Shown here in pieces: positions 3,972 through 40,460 of a stretch of DNA of 64,000 nucleotides (position 1 is the first letter of the stretch; every line of letters starts with the position of its first letter). Source of the stretch: Cryomorphaceae bacterium. Its GTDB lineage: Bacteria > Bacteroidota > Bacteroidia > Flavobacteriales_D > SKUL01. A program made the position numbers and the translations under genes. The notes beneath the pieces are model-generated. The model saw nothing but the letters and a program-made list of their open reading frames with translations. It was not told the DNA's origin and ran no database searches. Location: positions 4,844-68,843 of the forward strand of contig REDV01000092.1 of assembly GCA_007695365.1 (NCBI GenBank), written 5' to 3'.

Positions 3972-4937
3972 TCAACCAAAGAGGTAAGCCCCTGCATGCC
4001 GATTTATCCCAATCTCCGGATACTTCCAGTGAATTTCCCGATTGTCATCCGCAAACAGCGATTTGAATTTTTCCATGTCCGAAGGGGTCCATTCAACGGG
4101 CGTTTCTCCTCCTGAACCAGCCAGAATCCTGCGCTTCATCCGATGATAAATTCCCCTTCCCACGCGACTTTTTTCAGCCAGTGGATACCATCGGTTCAGC
4201 GCTCGAAGTTTCTTTGCCTGCCATTCATCCACACCCTGATTCAGGGGCTGCGTGGTCAAAATTTGTTCAAGAACCTTCTCATCCAGCTGATGCTCAAAAA
4301 TAGCTTCCAATCGCCTCAATACTTCCTGCGGATTGCTTTTAAAGTCCTCGTAGAGAAAAACCTCCACGCTTGGAAAAAGCGATTTGTACAATTTCACCAT
4401 AGGTAGATAGCGATACCCCGGGGCAAATTCGCAGGCGTGATAGGTGTCGAACTTCGCCCAGTCAAACAAATCAACCGCCGGCTGACTGCTGTAGCTTTCA
4501 GGTTGATAAACAGGTGATTCAAATCGAACAAAATCGTGGAGCGAGCACGTCTCCTTGTCTTGAAGCGCAATGAGATACATGGATTTCAGCAACTCCGGCT
4601 GGTTGCGCAAGAAGAGCAACACGGTGGAGTCTGGCATTGCCTGCTGAAGTCGAGTGGCAATTCTCGTCCGGTTGCCGTAATGCCAGTAGAGCGCCTGGCC
4701 TGCGAAGTTTTCGTTGCTCAAAAGCAAGGGTTGATTGCCATGGCTTTGCACCCAGCTTCGAAGCGCCGAAGGTTGGTAAGTGCTGTCATCCTCATACATC
4801 AGGTTTTGAAACAAGGGGTTAATCTGCGTAAAAGGCAATCCGACATAATTCAGCGCCCTGAACTCCGGAAAAACCACCCTCTGAAAAAAGGTAGTGGCCG
4901 TGCGCGGCATGCCGATATGAATGAAGTTTTTCGTCAC
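3972..4937 (-). CDS. sulfotransferase family protein
   Basis: The N-terminal IHIGMPRTATTFFQ resembles the PAPS 5'-phosphosulfate-binding loop of bacterial sulfotransferases. 321 aa ORF with no competing frame. Confidence 0.6.
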   Translation of the reverse strand: MTKNFIHIGMPRTATTFFQRVVFPEFRALNYVGLPFTQINPLFQNLMYEDDSTYQPSALRSWVQSHGNQPLLLSNENFAGQALYWHYGNRTRIATRLQQAMPDSTVLLFLRNQPELLKSMYLIALQDKETCSLHDFVRFESPVYQPESYSSQPAVDLFDWAKFDTYHACEFAPGYRYLPMVKLYKSLFPSVEVFLYEDFKSNPQEVLRRLEAIFEHQLDEKVLEQILTTQPLNQGVDEWQAKKLRALNRWYPLAEKSRVGRGIYHRMKRRILAGSGGETPVEWTPSDMEKFKSLFADDNREIHWKYPEIGINRHAGAYLFG

Positions 4938-9076: not shown

Positions 9077-10207
9077 ATGCAAACTATGTTCGCTAAATAC
9101 CTTTCCGCTGTTTTGATGTTGCTTTTCATCACGCCTGCTTTTGCCCAGGTAGAGGATGACGACGATGATGATTTTGATTTTTCGGAGTTTGAATTGGCGG
9201 CACCTCCGTCAAAGAGTTTTTGCAACAACAAGGTGTTGGGGCAGATTCCAACAACGCTCGTTGGATTTAATTACGACTATCAGTTTCCGCACGATTTATC
9301 CGTGATGCCTCCCATCGGAGGAGAAGGTTTTTTTCCCGAGCAAACAGCCGGGATTTCACCCTCGCAGGCTTTCAATTTCCAGGGAAATTTTCCCATCGTT
9401 TCCCGAAACAACATCCTTATCAACCTCAACACCATTTTTCATCATCAGTCGTATGCTTTTTCCGGCAACGACAGCCACCCGTTGATGCAAAGCCTTGGCC
9501 GCCACGGACTGACCCGATCAGCAGTGATGGGTACGGTGTTTAAGCCGCTGAACGACCGTCATTTTATTCTGGCTCAGGTAGGTGCTGAAGTAAACGGCGA
9601 TTATGTTTTTAATGATGCCGGCGATGTCTTCGGTTCGGTTCGCATGCCTGCCGCTGTGCTATTCGGATGGAAGCCGCACGACCGTTTGATGTATGCTTTT
9701 GGACTGTCTCGCACCTACATCGGTGGATCGCTCAACTACGTACCGGTTGTTTATTACTACCACACTTTCAAGAACCAGAAATGGGGAATAGAGGCGCTTT
9801 TGCCCGCGCGGGGTGCCTTGCGCTACAGGTTCAATAGCCTGTCTGTGCTTTTGCTTGGCTTTAACGCAACGGGTGCCAGCTACAGCCTGAACAGTTTTGA
9901 TGCCTATGCCCAGTCCTTTGGGATACCCCAGCAAGGTGAATTGCCGGGCTTTAACGATTTACTGAGTAGCGCCCGAAATGTAGAACTGCGCCGCTCGGAA
10001 TTGCGACTCGGCTTAACATTTCAGCGCTCAATCGTGGGCTTTTTCTGGCTGACGCTTGATGCAGGTTACCGCGTAAACTGGAGTTATGGAGTTGACCAGG
10101 GAGGAGATTTTCTCCGCTTCTTTGGTGACAATACACCGTACTTTCTGGAAACGGAGCTGCGCAATACGCCATACATCAGCGTAGGCATCAGCTACATGAG
10201 CCCGTAA
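9077..10207 (+). CDS. hypothetical outer-membrane beta-barrel-like protein
   Basis: Start moved to MQTMFAKYLSAVLMLLFITPAFAQ (signal peptide). An acidic tract VEDDDDDDFDF is followed by alternating beta-strand-like sequence, and the C-terminus is aromatic-rich. Confidence 0.6.
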   Translation: MQTMFAKYLSAVLMLLFITPAFAQVEDDDDDDFDFSEFELAAPPSKSFCNNKVLGQIPTTLVGFNYDYQFPHDLSVMPPIGGEGFFPEQTAGISPSQAFNFQGNFPIVSRNNILINLNTIFHHQSYAFSGNDSHPLMQSLGRHGLTRSAVMGTVFKPLNDRHFILAQVGAEVNGDYVFNDAGDVFGSVRMPAAVLFGWKPHDRLMYAFGLSRTYIGGSLNYVPVVYYYHTFKNQKWGIEALLPARGALRYRFNSLSVLLLGFNATGASYSLNSFDAYAQSFGIPQQGELPGFNDLLSSARNVELRRSELRLGLTFQRSIVGFFWLTLDAGYRVNWSYGVDQGGDFLRFFGDNTPYFLETELRNTPYISVGISYMSP

Positions 10208-33923: not shown

Positions 33924-34451
33924 ATGCACCAATCAATTGCTCCTCACTGGGAGAAGCTTACCCTTCTTAAAAACGAATGGATTGCTCAATTGGAAACCCT
34001 GCCTCAGGAGACTTGCTCGGCCCGGCTGGCTCAGGGGTGGAATATTCTGCAGGTTGTTGAGCACGTTATCACTTCCGAAACAGGTACATTGGGCTACATG
34101 AAAAAGAAAACAGCCGCCCCGTGGAGTGAAATACCATTGGCAAACGAAAATCATGTATCGAAAGGCAGGCAACTGAATGAAGCACTTAAATCTGAAAAAC
34201 GCTGGAAGGCCCCGGATGTGCTTCCGGATCCTACCGGGTCACAATCATTTGATAATATGGCGAAGTATTGGGATGGATTGCGTGGAGAGTATCAAGGATT
34301 CCTAAGCGACCTCGATCCTGCCTATTTCGAAAGAACCATCTTCAGACACCCCTATTCAGGCCCACTCGATTTGTACCATACACTGGATTTTCTGTGTAAC
34401 CACATTCTTCACCATCAGTATCAGGTAGAGAGGATTAAGGTGATGCTTTGA
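33924..34451 (+). CDS. DinB family protein
   Basis: 175 aa four-helix type. Has the conserved His pattern (VEHVITSE..., LCNHILHHQYQ). Confidence 0.75.
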   Translation: MHQSIAPHWEKLTLLKNEWIAQLETLPQETCSARLAQGWNILQVVEHVITSETGTLGYMKKKTAAPWSEIPLANENHVSKGRQLNEALKSEKRWKAPDVLPDPTGSQSFDNMAKYWDGLRGEYQGFLSDLDPAYFERTIFRHPYSGPLDLYHTLDFLCNHILHHQYQVERIKVML

Positions 34452-34485
34452 GCGGGTGCGCCGAACCTCACCACACTTATGAACT

Positions 34486-34570
34486 ATTGTTGACAACATA
34501 TGTTCAAACAATGTGAAAAACATCCATACGAAAAGTTTGCCTGGCCGAGGTTTTATACTGTCCTTTGACA
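34486..34570 (+). promoter_or_regulatory. upstream module copy 1: imperfect dyad ATTGTTGA-N9-TTCAAACAAT, ATGTGAAAA, AAAAGTTTG (-33-like), CCTTTGACA (-7-like TTTG)
   Basis: Same ordered blocks as 35018..35113. The two TTTG boxes are spaced 20 to 21 nt from the expected TAnn position, as in Bacteroidota sigma-A promoters. Confidence 0.4.
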
Positions 34571-34573
34571 CGC

Positions 34574-34952
34574 AAGTCAACGGATTTGTTGTCGGTTTTT
34601 CAAACCAGTTGAGTGTTTTGACATCGTGCCTTCTCAAGGGAAGGAACACCACGGAGGCAACTCCTGAAGTGAAGATGCTGCCCGGTGTAAGTCGGGTGAG
34701 TTGCAAGTTCGGTTCGCCGAAAAAGCAAAGTAACATTTGCGATTGCAGCGAAAGGAGCAGGGTTCGCAAGAACCTGTTCGCATACATGTCTTCGGACATT
34801 GGCGAAAGGCTTCAAAACACAACGCCAGATACGTAGAACTTCGGTTGGACGTTGAAGACAGTAGAAAAGATGATTTGTTCACTTTGCAAACTACGGTTTG
34901 CATGAGTGATGCGGGAGTCCGTTTCTTACGATTCGGACTCCCGTTTTTTTTT
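34574..34952 (+). ncRNA. candidate structured ncRNA A (about 380 nt, unassigned family)
   Basis: No credible ORF. Tetraloop hairpins: 34653..34664 GGAG-GCAA-CUCC; 34758..34776 with a GCAA loop; 34786..34799 AUGUC-UUCG-GACAU; 34832..34851 with a UUCG loop; 34886..34901 GCAAAC-UACG-GUUUGC. Ends in the terminator at 34912..34952. Confidence 0.45.
34912..34952 (+). terminator. strong intrinsic terminator
   Basis: CGGGAGUCCG-12 nt loop-CGGACUCCCG followed by U9. Confidence 0.85.
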
Positions 34953-35017
34953 GTCCGTTTTCGTCCATTACAAGAGTATAGTTGCTTGTTTTTAGCAGGC
35001 GGGAACAGGACCATTGA

Positions 35018-35113
35018 GTTGTTGACAATTGTTCATAACTCATGTGAAAACGAAGTGCAAAAACTCCAAAAGAAAAGTTTGGTAACTGGGCAGTAATTTC
35101 CCCACCTTTGACA
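35018..35113 (+). promoter_or_regulatory. upstream module copy 2: dyad GAGTTGTTGAC-N4-GTTCATAACTC, ATGTGAAAA, AAAAGTTTG, CCTTTGACA
   Basis: Block-for-block similarity to 34486..34570, about 532 bp downstream of copy 1. Confidence 0.4.
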
Positions 35114-35116
35114 TGT

Positions 35117-35570
35117 CAAACGAGAGATAGAAGCCGGTCGAACGAGATCGGAAACTCTGAAAAGGCAGGTGCAAACGGAAAGTCCTCCTCGCGGTTGCGG
35201 TTTTCTGTGCAAGGTTGAGTTCGGCAACGACTCAATGTCCTGTGGGAATGAGTAGCGAAACACAAGACTCACTTACTTCGGTGGCTGAGTTGAAAGGGAG
35301 TTAAATCCCCGTTGCGTTGCGAAGTTTCGTTCGTGAAAGCGACGAAGCATGTTCCCGGCGAAGCACACCAAGTTGAATATCCTCAGGGATGCTCATTGTG
35401 TGGTGTGTGTACCACGATGCAAATCGTCGCCGGTTTCAGAGTAGAATGGAAAGAGGCTTCCGGGCCGAATTCCGGGCTTCGAACGGTAGTTTGAAATCAG
35501 GTTGCGCTACGGTGCAGCCACGATTAACGGGAGCTATTTCGCAAGAAGTGGCTCCCGTTACTGTTTTATG
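35117..35570 (+). ncRNA. candidate structured ncRNA B (about 450 nt, unassigned family)
   Basis: Hairpins: 35134..35151; 35215..35235 (8 bp with a GCAA loop); 35267..35290 (UUCG loop); 35504..35515 (UACG loop). A long terminal hairpin at 35526..35559, AACGGGAGC...GCAA...GCUCCCGUU, is followed by ACUGUUUUA. Confidence 0.4.
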
Positions 35571-35617
35571 GAGTTAGCGAATAGGAAGAAAATTCAATCT
35601 GGTGGATGGCTGTGGGG

Positions 35618-38600
35618 CTATCGCAACACTGTAATGCTGCCCCTGAACTCATAGGTTTCAAGCGTAGCTGTGGAACCCACTTGCAGGTGATACACGTACA
35701 CTTCGTCCTGAGCATAGTATTTCCCAGATGTATCGCTCCCGTTCCATTTCAGTTCAGGATCGCTCGATTCAAAAACCAATTGCCCCCAGCGGTTGAAAAT
35801 GCGCAACCTGAAGTTACCAGGGTCAATACCCAATCCTTCAATGGAAAACAGGTCGTTGATCCCGTCTTCATTGGGTGTAAATGCGTTGGGGATATAGACG
35901 CTAAAATCATCGCGAACCACATAGTTGATGCATCGCTGATCGCTGCATCCCTCTTCCGACCACACCGTCAGGCAAACAGGATACACTCCGGGTTGCTGAT
36001 CAAAGGTGAGTACAGGATTGTTGATGCCAAAAGTACCCCACTCGCCAAAGTCCCACTCAAGTGAGTCGGCATTTAGACTTTGATTAAAAAACTGCACCTG
36101 TTCGTTGTAAATGGTAGATTCTTGAGGAGATGCTCTGAAATCGGCAATTACAGGCGGAAGTACTTCAAGGTGATGATTCACAATGCTGTCGCAGCCATTG
36201 CTGGCAGGAAATATCTGAATGTAGGTGCCGGAGCTGGTGTAGTTGTTCAATCCAATGGTGTAAACGTCACCGTCGCAAATCTCGGCAAAAACATCCGTCA
36301 ATACATTGGGCGTGATAGTGAGCGTAAGTGTAGCACTCACCTCACAACCCCAAACGTTGAAACCTTCGTGCTGATACACCCCACTTTCCGTGTAGGCAGT
36401 TCCAAACCATGTATAGCTGCCGCACGCGCTTATCTCCGAAGTGATGTCTTCTGAGAAGTTAATGGTCAGGTCGAGAATAATGGTGCTGTCGCAGCCTGCT
36501 TCATTGCTCAATACAACCGAATGCACGCCACTTTGCACATAGGTTTCTCCGTTCAGCGGCCAGGTATAACCATCGCACTCTGAAATTTCCAGCACTGTTT
36601 CGCTGGCCTGTAAAACTTCCAAAGTGAGTGTTGCAGGCTCACTACAACCTTCGCCCGAAGGTGTGAACGTGTAAGTTGTTGTTTGCAGATTATTGATGGC
36701 CGGAGACCAGGAGCCAGCTACACCATTTATTGAAGTCACAGGCAGGGCAGGAATATCATCACCTGCACAAAAAGGCCCTTGCACATCGAAAAGAGGTATT
36801 ACGGTTTCTTCTATTTCTATGGTCAATGTTGTGGCAGTAGCACATTCACTCCCGGTAGGGGTAAAAGTGTAGGTGGTTGTTTCTGCATTGTTTAGGGCAG
36901 GAGACCAACTGCCGGAAAATCCGTTCAGGGATGTGGTTGGCAGAGCCGGTATATTCGCACCCTGACAGAAGGGACCCACATCAGCAAATTCAGGTTCTGT
37001 TGGTGCAGCAATCTCGATGGTAAGCGAAGTTTGAGATGCACATTGCCCCGCGCCGGGGGTAAAGGTGTAGCTGGTAGTTGCTGTGTTGTTCACTGCCGGC
37101 GACCAGGTTCCTGTAATTCCATTGTTGGAAGTGGTAGGCAAAGCAGGAATGTCAGCACCCTCGCACCAGGTGTCGGGTTCGTCAAAAAGTGGAGTGGTTT
37201 CGGGGCTAATTATTATATCAACCGTAGTTGACTCTGCGCATTGCCCCGGGTCGGGAGTGAAGGTGTAGGTAGTGGTTGCGGTATTGTTAACGGCAGGAGC
37301 CCATGAGCCGGTAATGCCATCGTTGCTAATAGCGGGCAGAGGGGGAATATCAGAACCCACACAATACGCCGGCGGTGGTGTAAAGGAAGGAGTAGTTTCG
37401 GGCTCAATTTCAATGACAAGCGTTGTATTCACAGCGCACTGATCCGGGTCAGGCGTAAAAGTATAGGTGGTGGTTGCCGTGTTGTTGATGACTGGTGCCC
37501 AGTTGCCGGTAATGCCATTGTTGGAGCTTGTGGGCAAGTCCGGAATATCCGAACCCGTGCAAAAAGGGCCTGCCTCATCGAATACGGGTTCTATTTCGGT
37601 GTCGATTACAACCTCCAAAGTAGTGGTGGTTGCACATTGACCCGCGTTGGGGGTGAAGGTATAGGTAGTGGTTGTTGTGTTGTTCATCGCGGGCGCCCAG
37701 GTTCCGGTAACACCGTTATTAGAGGTGGTTGGCAGCGCAGGGATGTCCGAGCCAAGACAATAAGGCCCTGCAGCACTGAATGCAGGCTCCTGTGCCTCTA
37801 CAATGGTTACAGTGGTCTGGGCAGTCACTTCTTCGCAACTACCAAAAGCCGGTATGGTATAGGTGATGGTGTATGTGCCTCCTGAGCTTTGGTCGGGAGT
37901 AATTTGACCGTTGCCGGGGTTGATGGCAAGGCCGCCCGGTTCGGCTGTGAAGGTGCCGCCTGTAAAGTTTTCAGTGCCTTCCAGAACTACGTCCTGAGGA
38001 GGTGCTTCTGACGCACAGAGTTCGGTGTCGGGATAACTAATAGTGGCGGTAGGGCAGGGATCTACGGTTGCCCCCACAAAATAGGGGCAGTGCAGGCTGT
38101 GCGTGCAGCCAAATGGAACGTTAAAGGTGTAGCAGAAAACATATGAGTTTCCCGGTACTACCGGCGAAAAGGTCAGGCTCGTCAGTGAACCGGTTTGAAT
38201 CGGTGCCCCGCACGTGATGTCGTATAGCGCCCAGGAAAAGTTCGTAACATTTCCCGCGCCGCAATCTGAGGTGATGATGACGTTGAAGCTCACGCTGGTT
38301 ACTGTGGCTGTAAAAGAGTTGCAGAAAGTGTTGAGTGAGCCTGAGGCCAATGGAGGAAAAAACTCAGGAGTTTCACAGTCTTCTACCACTTGTGGAATGG
38401 TGGGCTCAGTTGCATAGCCCAATGCATCGCCGCAAGGATCTTCACAAGTTGGGCAGAGCTGATTGTCGCCACCGCCACCTCCACCCGACAGACAGTTAAC
38501 GCAAGCAGGGTTAGTGGCTGCAATGCCAGCGCAAATAGCATCCCACGTTGTGACGCAACAGAATATGTCAACAGCGCAAACAGCAGTTTGACAAAGTATG

Positions 38601-38752
38601 TCGGACGGAAAGCCTGCCCCGGTCTGAGCTTGGTCGCAAAAAGGTTGCGCCTGCACATGATTCACGCTAACCGTTGCAATGCTTAATAGCATAGCCGCCA
38701 GCACGTTGCGGAGAGAAGCAAAGCTAAGTATTGAAAATTCAAACAGTTGCAC
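35618..38752 (-). CDS. large surface protein: Cys-rich N-module, six 66-aa repeats, three CDS-type repeats, PKD-like domain, T9SS type B CTD
   Basis: C-terminal FSVYIPNAFTPNEDGINDLFSI...LRIFNRWGQLVF...GSITVLR. Shares a 30-nt near-identical stretch of CTD DNA with 27194..30709. Confidence 0.88.
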   Translation of the reverse strand: MQLFEFSILSFASLRNVLAAMLLSIATVSVNHVQAQPFCDQAQTGAGFPSDILCQTAVCAVDIFCCVTTWDAICAGIAATNPACVNCLSGGGGGGDNQLCPTCEDPCGDALGYATEPTIPQVVEDCETPEFFPPLASGSLNTFCNSFTATVTSVSFNVIITSDCGAGNVTNFSWALYDITCGAPIQTGSLTSLTFSPVVPGNSYVFCYTFNVPFGCTHSLHCPYFVGATVDPCPTATISYPDTELCASEAPPQDVVLEGTENFTGGTFTAEPGGLAINPGNGQITPDQSSGGTYTITYTIPAFGSCEEVTAQTTVTIVEAQEPAFSAAGPYCLGSDIPALPTTSNNGVTGTWAPAMNNTTTTTYTFTPNAGQCATTTTLEVVIDTEIEPVFDEAGPFCTGSDIPDLPTSSNNGITGNWAPVINNTATTTYTFTPDPDQCAVNTTLVIEIEPETTPSFTPPPAYCVGSDIPPLPAISNDGITGSWAPAVNNTATTTYTFTPDPGQCAESTTVDIIISPETTPLFDEPDTWCEGADIPALPTTSNNGITGTWSPAVNNTATTSYTFTPGAGQCASQTSLTIEIAAPTEPEFADVGPFCQGANIPALPTTSLNGFSGSWSPALNNAETTTYTFTPTGSECATATTLTIEIEETVIPLFDVQGPFCAGDDIPALPVTSINGVAGSWSPAINNLQTTTYTFTPSGEGCSEPATLTLEVLQASETVLEISECDGYTWPLNGETYVQSGVHSVVLSNEAGCDSTIILDLTINFSEDITSEISACGSYTWFGTAYTESGVYQHEGFNVWGCEVSATLTLTITPNVLTDVFAEICDGDVYTIGLNNYTSSGTYIQIFPASNGCDSIVNHHLEVLPPVIADFRASPQESTIYNEQVQFFNQSLNADSLEWDFGEWGTFGINNPVLTFDQQPGVYPVCLTVWSEEGCSDQRCINYVVRDDFSVYIPNAFTPNEDGINDLFSIEGLGIDPGNFRLRIFNRWGQLVFESSDPELKWNGSDTSGKYYAQDEVYVYHLQVGSTATLETYEFRGSITVLR
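36599..37789 (-). repeat. six tandem 66 to 67 aa repeats, consensus P-x-F-x4-P-x-C-x-G-x-D-I-P-A-L-P-T-T-S-N-N-G-I-T-G-x-W-x-P-A-x-N-N-T-x-T-T-T-Y-T-F-T-P-x3-Q-C-A
   Basis: Counted in the translation, aa 322..718. The period is about 198 bp. Confidence 0.88.
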
Positions 38753-39089
38753 GTATTGGTTTTGCGGTGGTTTCTGTCAGGTTCAGGCTGAAAGAGATGC
38801 GGGCATCTTTCTCTGCCTTGCAAGATGCAACTTTTTTCTTATGTACCCAATGACGGCGAAAAAAACTCTAAGGTTGCATGGGGTATCAATCATTACATCG
38901 TGTCGTCCTCTATGTTATTGGAGTGTAATCAGGGGGTGGTTAAAAGGTGACGCATCGTGCTGAATACATGATAAACACAAAATCCTAAGCCTTTACTTTC
39001 AACCTGTCTTTGTGGAAAATTATGGAGCGGCGGTTCAGTAACCCATCCTAAATGAAATACCTTTCACCCAAATCAAGAACGTTCTCTTC

Positions 39090-40460
39090 ATGGTAAGGAA
39101 GTCATCCGCGCGGAAGAAAAAAGCTGGCAACGAAGAGCCCGGGAAAATCTTTGTGATAGATACCTCGGTTATTCTGTACGACAGCAATGCAATCAATAAT
39201 TTTGATGAACACTCCATCGTAATACCTATTCAGGTGTTGGAGGAGGTAGATAACTTCAAAAAAGGCAACGAAACCAAAAACTTTGAGGCACGCGAGTTCA
39301 TCCGTTTTGTAGATCAGGTTGCTCAAAATCAACTTATCAACGATTGGGTGCCACTAAACGGTGCCGGAAAAGGCAAGTTTAAAGTTGCACTCACCCACGA
39401 TGTAAAAGGTGTTGATGCTGTGAGAGTCTTGGGCGACAAGAAGTACGACAATCAAATTTTAAATTGCGCGCTTAGTACCCAGGAGGCCAACCCCGATAAA
39501 AAGGTGATTTTGGTATCCAAGGATATTTGCCTTCGGCTTAAGGCCAAGGCCCTGAACATTCAGGCTGAAGATTACGAAACGGGCAAGGTGAAGGATGTAT
39601 CCAAGCTTTATAAAGGCCACCAAAGCATTGATCGCATCTCTGAAACACTCCTCGATAGCCTCTTTAACAAAGGTTTTGGCGACCCTGAACTTTTGCCCAA
39701 AAAGGTTAAGCCGGTTGCCAATGAATACTTTGTGCTGCGAAATGCCAAAAAATCTGTTCTGGCGCGATACGATGCCCTGGAGCAAATGCTGGTGCGTGTA
39801 AAACCTGAGCCGGCTTTTGGTATCAAGGCCCTCAACGCTGAGCAAAGTTTTGCGCTGGATGCCCTTGCAAACCCCTCTATTAAGCTGATAACCATCCAAG
39901 GTAAAGCAGGAACCGGAAAAACCCTCCTCGCACTTGCAAGCGCCATTGAGCAACGCAGAGACTACAGGCAGATTTTTGTGAGCCGTCCCGTAATACCTCT
40001 TAGCAACAAGGATATCGGATACCTTCCCGGAGATATCAAAAGCAAACTCGACCCCTACATGCAGTCTATCTGGGATAACCTGAACTACATCAAAAGTCAG
40101 TTCAGAAATACCGATAAGAACGTGCAGCGAATCAAAGAAATGGTGGACAACGAAAAGATAGCCATTTCGCCTTTGGCGTACATTCGCGGACGAAGTCTAG
40201 TAAAGATTTTCTTCATCGTTGATGAAGCCCAAAACCTCACTCCTCACGAAGTGAAGACCATCATCAGCAGGGCCGGTGACGATACCAAAATTGTGTTTGC
40301 CGGAGATATTCACCAAATCGATACACCCTATCTTGATTCTGAGTCAAACGGCCTGTCGTATCTGATTGATAAGGTAAAAGGCAGTCCGCTGTTTGCCCAT
40401 ATTGCCCTTGAGAAAGGTGAGCGGAGCGATTTGGCCAATCTCGCCAATGAGCACCTCTAG
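39090..40460 (+). CDS. PhoH-like ATPase with N-terminal PIN domain (YlaK type)
   Basis: PIN-like FVIDTSVILYD...QVLEEVD. Walker A GKAGTGKT, Walker B FIVDEAQNL. Confidence 0.9.
   Translation: MVRKSSARKKKAGNEEPGKIFVIDTSVILYDSNAINNFDEHSIVIPIQVLEEVDNFKKGNETKNFEAREFIRFVDQVAQNQLINDWVPLNGAGKGKFKVALTHDVKGVDAVRVLGDKKYDNQILNCALSTQEANPDKKVILVSKDICLRLKAKALNIQAEDYETGKVKDVSKLYKGHQSIDRISETLLDSLFNKGFGDPELLPKKVKPVANEYFVLRNAKKSVLARYDALEQMLVRVKPEPAFGIKALNAEQSFALDALANPSIKLITIQGKAGTGKTLLALASAIEQRRDYRQIFVSRPVIPLSNKDIGYLPGDIKSKLDPYMQSIWDNLNYIKSQFRNTDKNVQRIKEMVDNEKIAISPLAYIRGRSLVKIFFIVDEAQNLTPHEVKTIISRAGDDTKIVFAGDIHQIDTPYLDSESNGLSYLIDKVKGSPLFAHIALEKGERSDLANLANEHL

Follow-up and report, generated by a model that had tools for sequence, protein, structure and literature searches.

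The 64,000 nucleotides (nt) analysed here, referred to as the window, are positions 4,844 to 68,843 (forward strand) of contig REDV01000092.1 in assembly GCA_007695365.1, from a Cryomorphaceae bacterium. Between a gene of the DinB_2 family and a convergent gene for a CHU_C/type IX secretion system (T9SS) adhesin there is a gap of 1166 bp, and it contains two tandem units, A and B (Table 1). A reading of the letters alone (the sequence-only reading) had placed the start of unit B about 165 nt past the terminator of A, which is confirmed by the position of that terminator (34912-34943, followed by a T9 run), and the boundaries it named for unit B agree to within ~5 nt with a discrete block conserved in relatives, 35111-35567 (+). 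Its proposal that B is an independent structured non-coding RNA (ncRNA) gene in tandem with A is supported by block conservation, covariation, the lack of a conserved open reading frame (ORF) and the lack of an Rfam match. We put at about 75% the probability that 35115-35570 (+) is an independently transcribed ncRNA of ~450 nt, here called B (a predicted transcript), which belongs to an undescribed, lineage-restricted family and acts in trans.

In the nearest other species (L002/L003, the latter being GCA_007129985.1) the gene order is the same and the intergenic region is of equal length; the DinB proteins of the window and this species are 81% identical in amino acid sequence. Nucleotide identity to L002 is 93% in the A body and 87% in the B body, 81% and 74% in the upstream modules of B and A, respectively, 50% in the 3' flank of B, and 45-60% in the spacers between the -33 and -7 promoter boxes. 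The conserved block of B in this comparison spans the -7 box to CTGTTTTA, and the differences inside B are mostly in predicted stems, with pairing preserved.

Further loci were reached through homologues of the window's PIN-PhoH gene (72-86% identical to it), and orthologues of B are present in eight lineages, all of them uncultured Cryomorphaceae/Flavobacteriales, so B is conserved outside the strain in which it was noticed. A family hidden Markov model used with nhmmer finds those of L002/L003, L007, L023, L008/L009 and L012 with E-values of 1e-101 to 1e-112. The diverged copies of L024 and L026, which nhmmer misses, were recognised by their ordered motifs; they retain the B 5' motif, 3' domain and tail, and a covariance model of the 3' domain of B, from which they had been left out, scores them at E = 1e-3 and 2e-5. 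The hallmarks of the family, in order and with conserved spacing, are helix P1 with its GAACGAG loop, the UGAAAGRG junction, GUUYCCGGYGA, the GAACKGUAGUUUG hairpin, the UACG hairpin, and the terminator with UUACUGUUUU; five landmark motifs, among them UGAAAGRG at 173-179 and GAACKGUAGUUUG at 363-369, hold near-constant positions (~5 nt) in six core lineages. An exact-pattern scan (GAACKGTAGTTTG-N30-60-TTTCGMAAG) over 185,579 GTDB species genomes (one genome per species) recovered B only in SKUL01000228.1, along with four chance matches confirmed by no model; since diverged members such as L024 and L026 escape a pattern this strict, the distribution it gives is a lower bound. To judge from these searches, B seems restricted to a single clade of Cryomorphaceae-like Flavobacteriales, seen only in metagenomes.

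The folding energy of 35117-35570 on the + strand is -178.6 kcal/mol, with z = -6.2 against dinucleotide shuffles, none of 100 shuffles being as good; for the - strand of the region z is -2.9. Identity between genera is low and MAFFT alone gives an unreliable alignment of the central region of B; the consensus structure was derived by segment-wise MAFFT alignment between anchor motifs followed by RNAalifold, and pairs were counted on six distinct sequences. Of the 126 pairs in the consensus, 86% are canonical; sliding the 3' partner by 1-3 columns lowers this to 35-46%. Compensatory double changes are seen at 60 pairs, compared with 11-25 in the slid controls. The 3' domain was checked with a separate MAFFT alignment of eight lineages, pair counting and 500 shuffles: 88.8% is paired versus 40-51% in slid controls, and no shuffle has a covariation score as high as that observed. 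Support is strongest for P1, the long-range P2 (for which ACUCUGAAA/UUUCAGAGU versus ACGUUCAGA/UUUGAACGG is an example of compensation), P5 with P5a, P6, and the UACG hairpin. Hairpin loops keep to the GNRA or UNCG type, the P1 loop is invariant across orthologues, and the three tetraloop hairpins named by the sequence-only reading (GCAA, UUCG and UACG) are all present. By this covariation RNA B has a compact multi-domain fold, held by the long-range helices P2, P5 and P6 and furnished with GNRA/UNCG tetraloops.

Three copies of the motif C(G/A)AACGAG / GAACKG are present in B, at the 5' end (35117-35124), in the P1 loop (35139-35146) and in the invariant hairpin (35480-35487); the motif is conserved in orthologues and could be a repeated binding site.

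Table 1. Features of the tandem RNA locus in the window, and positions of two further elements in related loci
Feature	Position	Strand	Remarks
DinB_2-family gene	33924-34451	+	5' border of the gap
Unit A	34476-34952	+	operator, promoter, terminator and ~380-nt structured RNA (34574-34952); tandem partner of B
Unit A counterpart of the palindrome, CTTATGAAC-TATT-GTTGACAAC	34476-34497	+	
Palindromic operator-like element, GTTGTTGAC-AATT-GTTCATAAC	35018-35039	+	~-88 from predicted B start
Remainder of shared module	35040-35081	+	half-site-like repeats GTGAAAAC / GTGCAAAAAC; ends in -33 TTTG (35078-35081)
-7 promoter box, CACCTTTG	35103-35110	+	21 nt past -33 TTTG
RNA B, predicted transcript	35115-35570	+	~450 nt; conserved block, nhmmer orthologues, fold z-score
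P0, possible end-closing helix	GAGAUAG 35124-35130 with CUGUUUU 35561-35567	+	both strands invariant
P1 hairpin, conserved loop GAACGA(G)	35134-35151	+	6 pairs, 97% canonical, 3 with double changes
P2, long-range helix	35154-35162 with 35434-35442	+	9 pairs, 6 with compensatory double changes
GCAA-capped hairpin	35214-35236	+	UUGAGU/ACUCAA (window) to UUGUG/CACAA (L002)
Central multi-way junction domain	35245-35355	+	anchor motif at 173-179 in six lineages
P5 of central junction	35245-35249/35351-35355	+	
P5a of central junction	35252-35259/35311-35318	+	double changes in 8/8 pairs
UUCG hairpin, central junction	35264-35292	+	
Invariant junction UGAAAGGG	35291-35298	+	
Short hairpin, central junction	35296-35307	+	
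GNRA-type hairpin, central junction	35327-35342	+	
Invariant motif UUCCCGGCGA	35352-35361	+	its CGGCGA is the 5' strand of P6
P6	CGGCGA 35356-35361 with UCGCCG 35427-35432	+	6 pairs, 89% canonical, 2 with double changes
Hairpin with conserved GNRA loop	35415-35426	+	GCAA/GCAA/GCAA/GAAA/GCAA in five core sequences
Sequence-invariant hairpin UCGAAC-GGUA-GUUUGA (motif GAACKGUAGUUUG)	35479-35494	+	helix 1 varies on one side only
UACG-capped hairpin	35499-35520	+	8/8 pairs changed on both sides, 8 lineages, 93.8% paired
Intrinsic terminator (predicted)	35525-35567	+	16-bp stem, GCAA loop, conserved tail UUACUGUUUU
CHU_C/T9SS adhesin gene	35618-38752	-	convergent with B; window-genus-specific
Conserved PhoH upstream block	38992-39089	+	CTTTCAAC-N9-TGTGGAAAA ... 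TACCTTTC
PIN-PhoH (PhoH2-like RNA helicase/nuclease) gene	39090-40460	+	most consistent array neighbour across lineages
Type C RNA in relatives	L007 8428-8716; L023 2446-2716; L008 8944-9226; L012 8191-8522; L019 from about 1190		
Small conserved protein in relatives	L007 8062-8322; L008 8575-8835; L010 9046-9330; L012 7821-8087; L023 2074-2340; L024 3023-3286		

The upstream module that the sequence-only reading saw before both units is a 57-nt direct repeat, 34483-34539 for A and 35025-35081 for B, 75% identical and 542 nt apart. The composite GAAAAGTTTG-N20/21-CCTTTGACA occurs exactly twice in the window, with none expected from shuffles. The palindrome of B may also be written GTTATGAAC-AATT-GTTCATAAC, and the core ACAATTGTTCATAAC is found again ahead of units of types A, B and C in relatives. 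The Bacteroidetes sigma-A promoter consensus is TTTG-N19-21-TAnnTTTG; unit B reads TTTG-N21-CACCTTTG, and the -7 box of its orthologues is TAcaTTTG or TAtaTTTG. Because the -33 and -7 boxes of B are kept while the spacer between them drops to 60% identity with L002, unit B is judged to have its own promoter. The presence of the palindrome at A and B and at all three types in relatives suggests a single dimeric regulator for the whole set.

At the 3' end, the GCAA-capped hairpin and U-rich tail noted earlier have the form of an intrinsic terminator, a G+C-rich stem-loop of 16 pairs (7 G-C; 35525-35560) with a 4-nt loop, followed by CTGTTTTATG. An interruption breaks the U-tract (UUACUGUUUUA). 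The stem shows slight covariation, and the tail does not vary. As had been reported, CGGGAG/CTCCCGTT is common to terminators A and B. An invariant GUUCCCG (35351-35357) can pair with the 5' arm of the B terminator, CGGGAGC (35528-35534), in six lineages, a possible anti-terminator fold.

Profile searches distinguish three RNA types, A, B and C, that are not mutually alignable. Type A is carried by the window, L002/L003, L007, L018, L023 and L010/L011; type B by the window and the nhmmer-positive relatives listed above; and type C by L007, L018, L023, L008, L012 and L019, the window being without it. The arrays consist of one to three units and are A+B in the window genus, C+A+B in L007 and L023, C+B in L008 and L012, A only in L010, and B only in L024/L025 and L026/L027; each of the units comes with a promoter module of its own (the core ACAATTGTTCATAAC followed by -33 and -7 boxes) and a separate terminator. 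Unit A is ~50% identical between the window and L007 and its 104 pairs are 91% canonical, with 40 double changes against 5-11 in slid controls. Type C, the first unit of the array in several relatives, is an RNA of ~270-330 nt with the shared promoter module and a terminator of its own; 90% of its 52 pairs are canonical and 19 show double changes. A, B and C appear to be three new RNA families of a known general kind, the large structured bacterial ncRNAs; literature searches found no description of such RNAs.

The sequence-only reading saw in A and B a duplicated gene with a diverged body. The promoter modules are clearly related, and the interiors are indeed not alignable (the A and B bodies have no mutual nhmmer match at E<=10). 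In every lineage the B 3'-domain covariance model also matches, at E 1e-4 to 2e-3, the 3' domain of A with its penultimate UACG-type hairpin and terminator; this is modest support, as a reverse-strand terminator scores equally. Type C has the promoter module of A and B and no 3'-domain similarity, and the shared promoter may therefore be due as much to a common regulator as to duplication of a whole gene. Each of A, B and C forms a conserved orthologous group of its own, so any duplication is older than the split of these genera.

The penultimate hairpin of A (34884-34898, UUGCAAACUACGGUU) is complementary at 13 of 15 positions (87%) to the invariant hairpin of B (35482-35496, AACGGUAGUUUGAAA). 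The complementarity is preserved via G-U in L007, and L010, which is without B, has a different A loop, CUUUGG; this could be a kissing contact, or merely two hairpins with the same stem.

B resembles no known element in the collections searched. Rfam 15 has no match at gathering thresholds anywhere in the window, and at E<=10 the region 34300-35800 gives only a terminator-like snR83 match and a microRNA match far below threshold; at the orthologous loci of L007, L008, L012 and L024 it finds nothing on A, B or C, the searches of window and loci extending to E<=10 or E<=1. The unmatched families include 6S/6S-Flavo, RNase P, tmRNA, SRP, OLE, GOLLD, ROOL, raiA, HEARO, group I/II introns, Flavo-1 and Bacteroidales-1. 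ARAGORN detects no tRNA-like element in 34300-35700, which places B outside the Y-RNA-like and tRNA-like groups, and the collections of viral contigs, phage genomes and plasmids yielded nothing similar to it.

Several specific candidates were rejected. RNase P was suggested by the string GGAAAGUCC, which is not conserved in L002 and has no Rfam match. A protein-sequestering RNA of the Csr/Rsm type, which would expose multiple (A)GGA motifs in loops or single strands, does not fit, with 0-1 GGA per copy in unpaired consensus positions and loops that are GNRA/UNCG or family-specific; nor does a type III antitoxin like ToxI, made of direct repeats of ~34-36 nt in tandem just ahead of a ToxN/AbiQ-family endoribonuclease gene, there being no tandem repeat in 35000-35700 and no internal direct-repeat family, and the nuclease neighbour being PIN-PhoH. 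6S RNA is about 180-200 nt, a mostly double-stranded rod with a central bubble resembling an open promoter; the B consensus is multi-branched with >15 helices over ~450 nt and matches neither 6S nor 6S-Flavo. As for a coding gene, no ORF stands at a homologous position, L012 has none >31 amino acids (aa), and the 60-aa ORFs of the window copy are only mechanical.

The sequence-only reading suggested checking for conserved synteny between DinB and the T9SS adhesin. Both genes neighbour the RNAs only in the window's genus; homologues of DinB that are 51-58% identical (L004-L006) stand in other contexts without RNAs, and the adhesin gene, which to judge from relatives is a genus-specific insertion, lies between the B terminator and the PhoH promoter block. 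The informative neighbour is instead the PIN-PhoH gene. The array is directly upstream of it, on the same strand, in five lineages (L007, L023, L008, L024 and L026), where B lies 100-155 nt before the PhoH start and the genes upstream of the array differ; in relatives the PhoH upstream block comes directly after the terminator of whichever unit closes the array (B; in L010, A). The window protein carries Pfam PIN_4 and PhoH domains and matches the NCBIfam model 'RNA 5'-3' helicase PhoH2' over its full length, below the model cut-off. The PhoH block (CTGTYAAC-N8-9-TGTGRATAA ... TAYCTTG) is superficially like the half-sites GTTCATAAC / GTGAAAAAC of the RNA promoters, and PhoH may share their regulator.

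PIN-PhoH2 is our best guess at a protein partner of B, a weak link drawn from synteny only. Mycobacterial PhoH2 combines a PIN ribonuclease and an RNA helicase in one fused protein; its gene shares a transcript with that of a small partner, phoAT, and the enzyme has been proposed to assemble on the single-stranded loops of structured RNAs (PMC7390352). B, with A and C as accessories, could be a dedicated RNA partner of PIN-PhoH2, an operator-switched folded decoy or inhibitor (a type-III-like RNA 'antitoxin') or a scaffold for loading or gating, and such a role would explain the linkage of arrays to PhoH; we regard this proposal as tentative and rather improbable. PhoH2-like genes have a vastly broader distribution than the RNAs recovered to date (about 8000 relatives of the window protein at E<1e-100), L010 carries A and no B, and in L022, whose PhoH is 86% identical to the window's, a protein-coding gene ends ~150 nt before PhoH. 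The B 3' domain was not found in the 243 nt available there (L022 1-243), the array being displaced or lost. The mycobacterial target motif AC[AU][AU][GC] (PMC7390352) has no convincing match, by eye, in the GAACGAG loop, the GAACKGUAGUUUG hairpin, the UACG loop or the 3' tail.

The same neighbourhood could be read in cis, with B as the long 5' leader or attenuator (perhaps ancestral) of the PIN-PhoH2 gene and read-through of its terminator setting phoH2 expression. The position before PhoH in the five lineages, despite differing upstream genes, would suit a leader, as would the interrupted U-tract and the GUUCCCG pairing, which could be an anti-terminator; in these lineages B has the position of a same-strand 5' untranslated region, with no intervening gene. 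In the window, however, the next gene is on the opposite strand, and this convergent gene of 3.1 kb separates B from PhoH in L002/L003 as well, with B still conserved and its changes pair-preserving. B is thus still under structural selection although the adhesin gene parts it from PhoH, which argues against a purely cis-acting leader. Furthermore, in L012 B and PhoH are separated by an insertion of 870 nt that contains an ORF, A rather than B adjoins PhoH in L010, and the L022 gene mentioned above ends ~150 nt before PhoH. PhoH has its own conserved promoter-like block in all lineages, which stayed with PhoH in the window genus; changes in the alternative pairing are one-sided only, and the pairing is lost in L024; and A and C have the same promoter and terminator layout without a gene to regulate. 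We consider a cis-acting leader unlikely.

Another alternative has B as a trans-acting regulatory RNA that base-pairs with mRNAs, its invariant single-stranded motifs serving as seeds. The independent promoter/terminator unit and the several short invariant motifs (GAACGAG, GAACKGUAGUUUG) would be in keeping with this, and so would the 15 complementary nt of A; but at ~450 nt, with roughly 125 covarying pairs, long-range helices and GNRA/UNCG loops, B has far more structure than seed-type small RNAs (sRNAs), and the consensus places the invariant GAACKGUAGUUUG itself in a hairpin. That A and B are complementary is largely due to the same stem in both hairpins, the B motif is equally conserved in lineages without A (L008, L012, L024 and L026), and inspection by eye of the PhoH upstream block found no target complementarity. 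This explanation appears quite improbable. That the region holds no RNA gene and is a DNA-level element, a decayed mobile-element remnant or a short coding gene is very unlikely: it adjoins rearrangement or insertion points (the window adhesin; repeats like miniature inverted-repeat transposable elements in L012) and has mechanical 60-aa ORFs in the window copy, but folding differs between the strands and the covariation tolerates G-U pairs, as suits RNA and not DNA, the ORFs are conserved neither in position nor in sequence, repeats, a transposase and similarity to phages or plasmids are all lacking, and promoter and terminator exactly bracket the conserved block.

B seems to be neither a cis leader nor a base-pairing sRNA nor an mRNA, and its build resembles that of stable protein-binding or self-assembling structured RNAs more than that of seed-type sRNAs. 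We propose that a Bacteroidetes-type sigma-A promoter (-33 TTTG, -7 CACCTTTG) with a palindromic operator ~88 bp upstream would drive transcription, one dimeric transcription factor probably switching on all units, and that the strong GNRA-capped terminator is predicted to stop it. The RNA would then fold into the compact multi-domain body whose helices P2, P5 and P6 covary. Four to five exposed elements that do not covary but are invariant in sequence—the GAACGAG loop, the UGAAAGRG junction, GUUYCCGGYGA, the GAACKGUAGUUUG hairpin and the UUACUGUUUU tail—are likely contact sites, and the stable folded RNA would act in trans, most probably by binding protein.

Several points weigh against this view of B. 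The start site, termination and stability of the RNA are all predicted; the trans-acting, protein-binding role and the PhoH2 link are drawn only from architecture and neighbourhood, and the neighbourhood shared among relatives may be simple inheritance. Consensus structure and pair counts come from one alignment, which inflates the contrast with the slid controls, and the 6 to 8 lineages include several close pairs. The variable hairpins at 35165-35210 and 35362-35410 are poorly aligned and of uncertain structure, and P0 is without covariation, since both of its strands are invariant, and is neither supported nor contradicted.

Among known systems, OLE, GOLLD, ROOL and raiA are likewise RNAs of several hundred nt with multi-domain covarying folds, GNRA/UNCG loops and long-range helices; they are free-standing genes, not obviously cis-regulatory, with functions not deducible from sequence. 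B differs in lacking any sequence or structure match to them in Rfam, in its phylum (Bacteroidota) and in not being prophage-associated; it is smaller than OLE, GOLLD and ROOL, and belongs to arrays of up to three RNA types under a common regulated promoter. GOLLD, ROOL and OLE form homo-oligomeric RNA-only assemblies (PMC12286853).

The arrays also recall the layout of RsmX/Y/Z, CsrB/C and Qrr1-5, sets of RNAs, some in tandem, with their own promoters bearing the same palindromic upstream site, their own terminators and differing bodies; the likeness suggests one transcription factor for the whole set. Unlike these, B has no repeated GGA loops, its body is 3-4 times longer and globular, and the three types are mutually unalignable; to our knowledge, Bacteroidota are generally without CsrA and Hfq, and without the usual sRNA chaperones. 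With riboswitches and leaders B shares, in five lineages, a structured RNA with an intrinsic terminator upstream of a same-strand gene; it differs in the convergent next gene of the window, in persisting uncoupled from PhoH, in having companions A and C without a downstream gene, and in being larger than most known riboswitches. Most relatives show the order of a type III toxin-antitoxin system such as ToxIN—promoter, structured RNA, terminator, then a PIN ribonuclease-helicase gene—and mycobacterial PhoH2 is regarded as a toxin-antitoxin-like module with its small upstream partner gene phoAT (PMC7390352). Unlike ToxIN, B has no ~36-nt tandem repeats and PIN-PhoH takes the place of ToxN/AbiQ; PhoH has its own promoter block, RNA and gene are separable (window, L012), and PhoH2 is extremely widespread with the RNA in one narrow clade.

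Bacterial ncRNAs longer than ~300 nt with complex covarying architecture are rare, and have historically proved to be ribozymes, ribonucleoprotein cores or, recently, self-assembling RNA cages (PMC12286853). Unusual here are the placing of different folds side by side in arrays under a common regulated promoter and the persistent linkage to PIN-PhoH, a conserved RNA helicase/nuclease of poorly understood role (PMC7390352). Within a narrow and so far uncultured host range, the arrays are a concrete, testable starting point for the study of new classes of RNA structure, of regulation at the RNA level in Bacteroidota and possibly of what PhoH2 does; if the PhoH2-partner proposal were true, B would be the first known RNA component for this very widespread family.

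Two further observations concern the flanks of the arrays in relatives. Stretches of 490-620 nt without called genes lie between CoaE and a small protein in L007 (7441-8061) and L010 (8557-9045); that of L007, the one scanned, has no Rfam match. The small protein, of 86-94 aa (MDKYDxLLLD...ENKGGYCLTKKG), is conserved immediately upstream of the arrays. It is encoded nowhere in the window nor in L002; a metagenome scan for it gave four loci, and as a marker of RNA arrays it proved unreliable, a 51% identical homologue in L021 having no array downstream. Weak winged-helix signals (Pfam HTH_45, E=0.007; SloR N-terminal DNA-binding domain, PDB 5cvi, E=0.0015) make it a candidate regulator of the shared operator. 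In L012, the interval between B and PhoH contains at 9130-9390 two ~120-nt direct repeats (ending ...ccataaaatcctcgrgatattcta...gggataatcccaac) and a 108-aa ORF, and looks like the insertion of a small repeat element.

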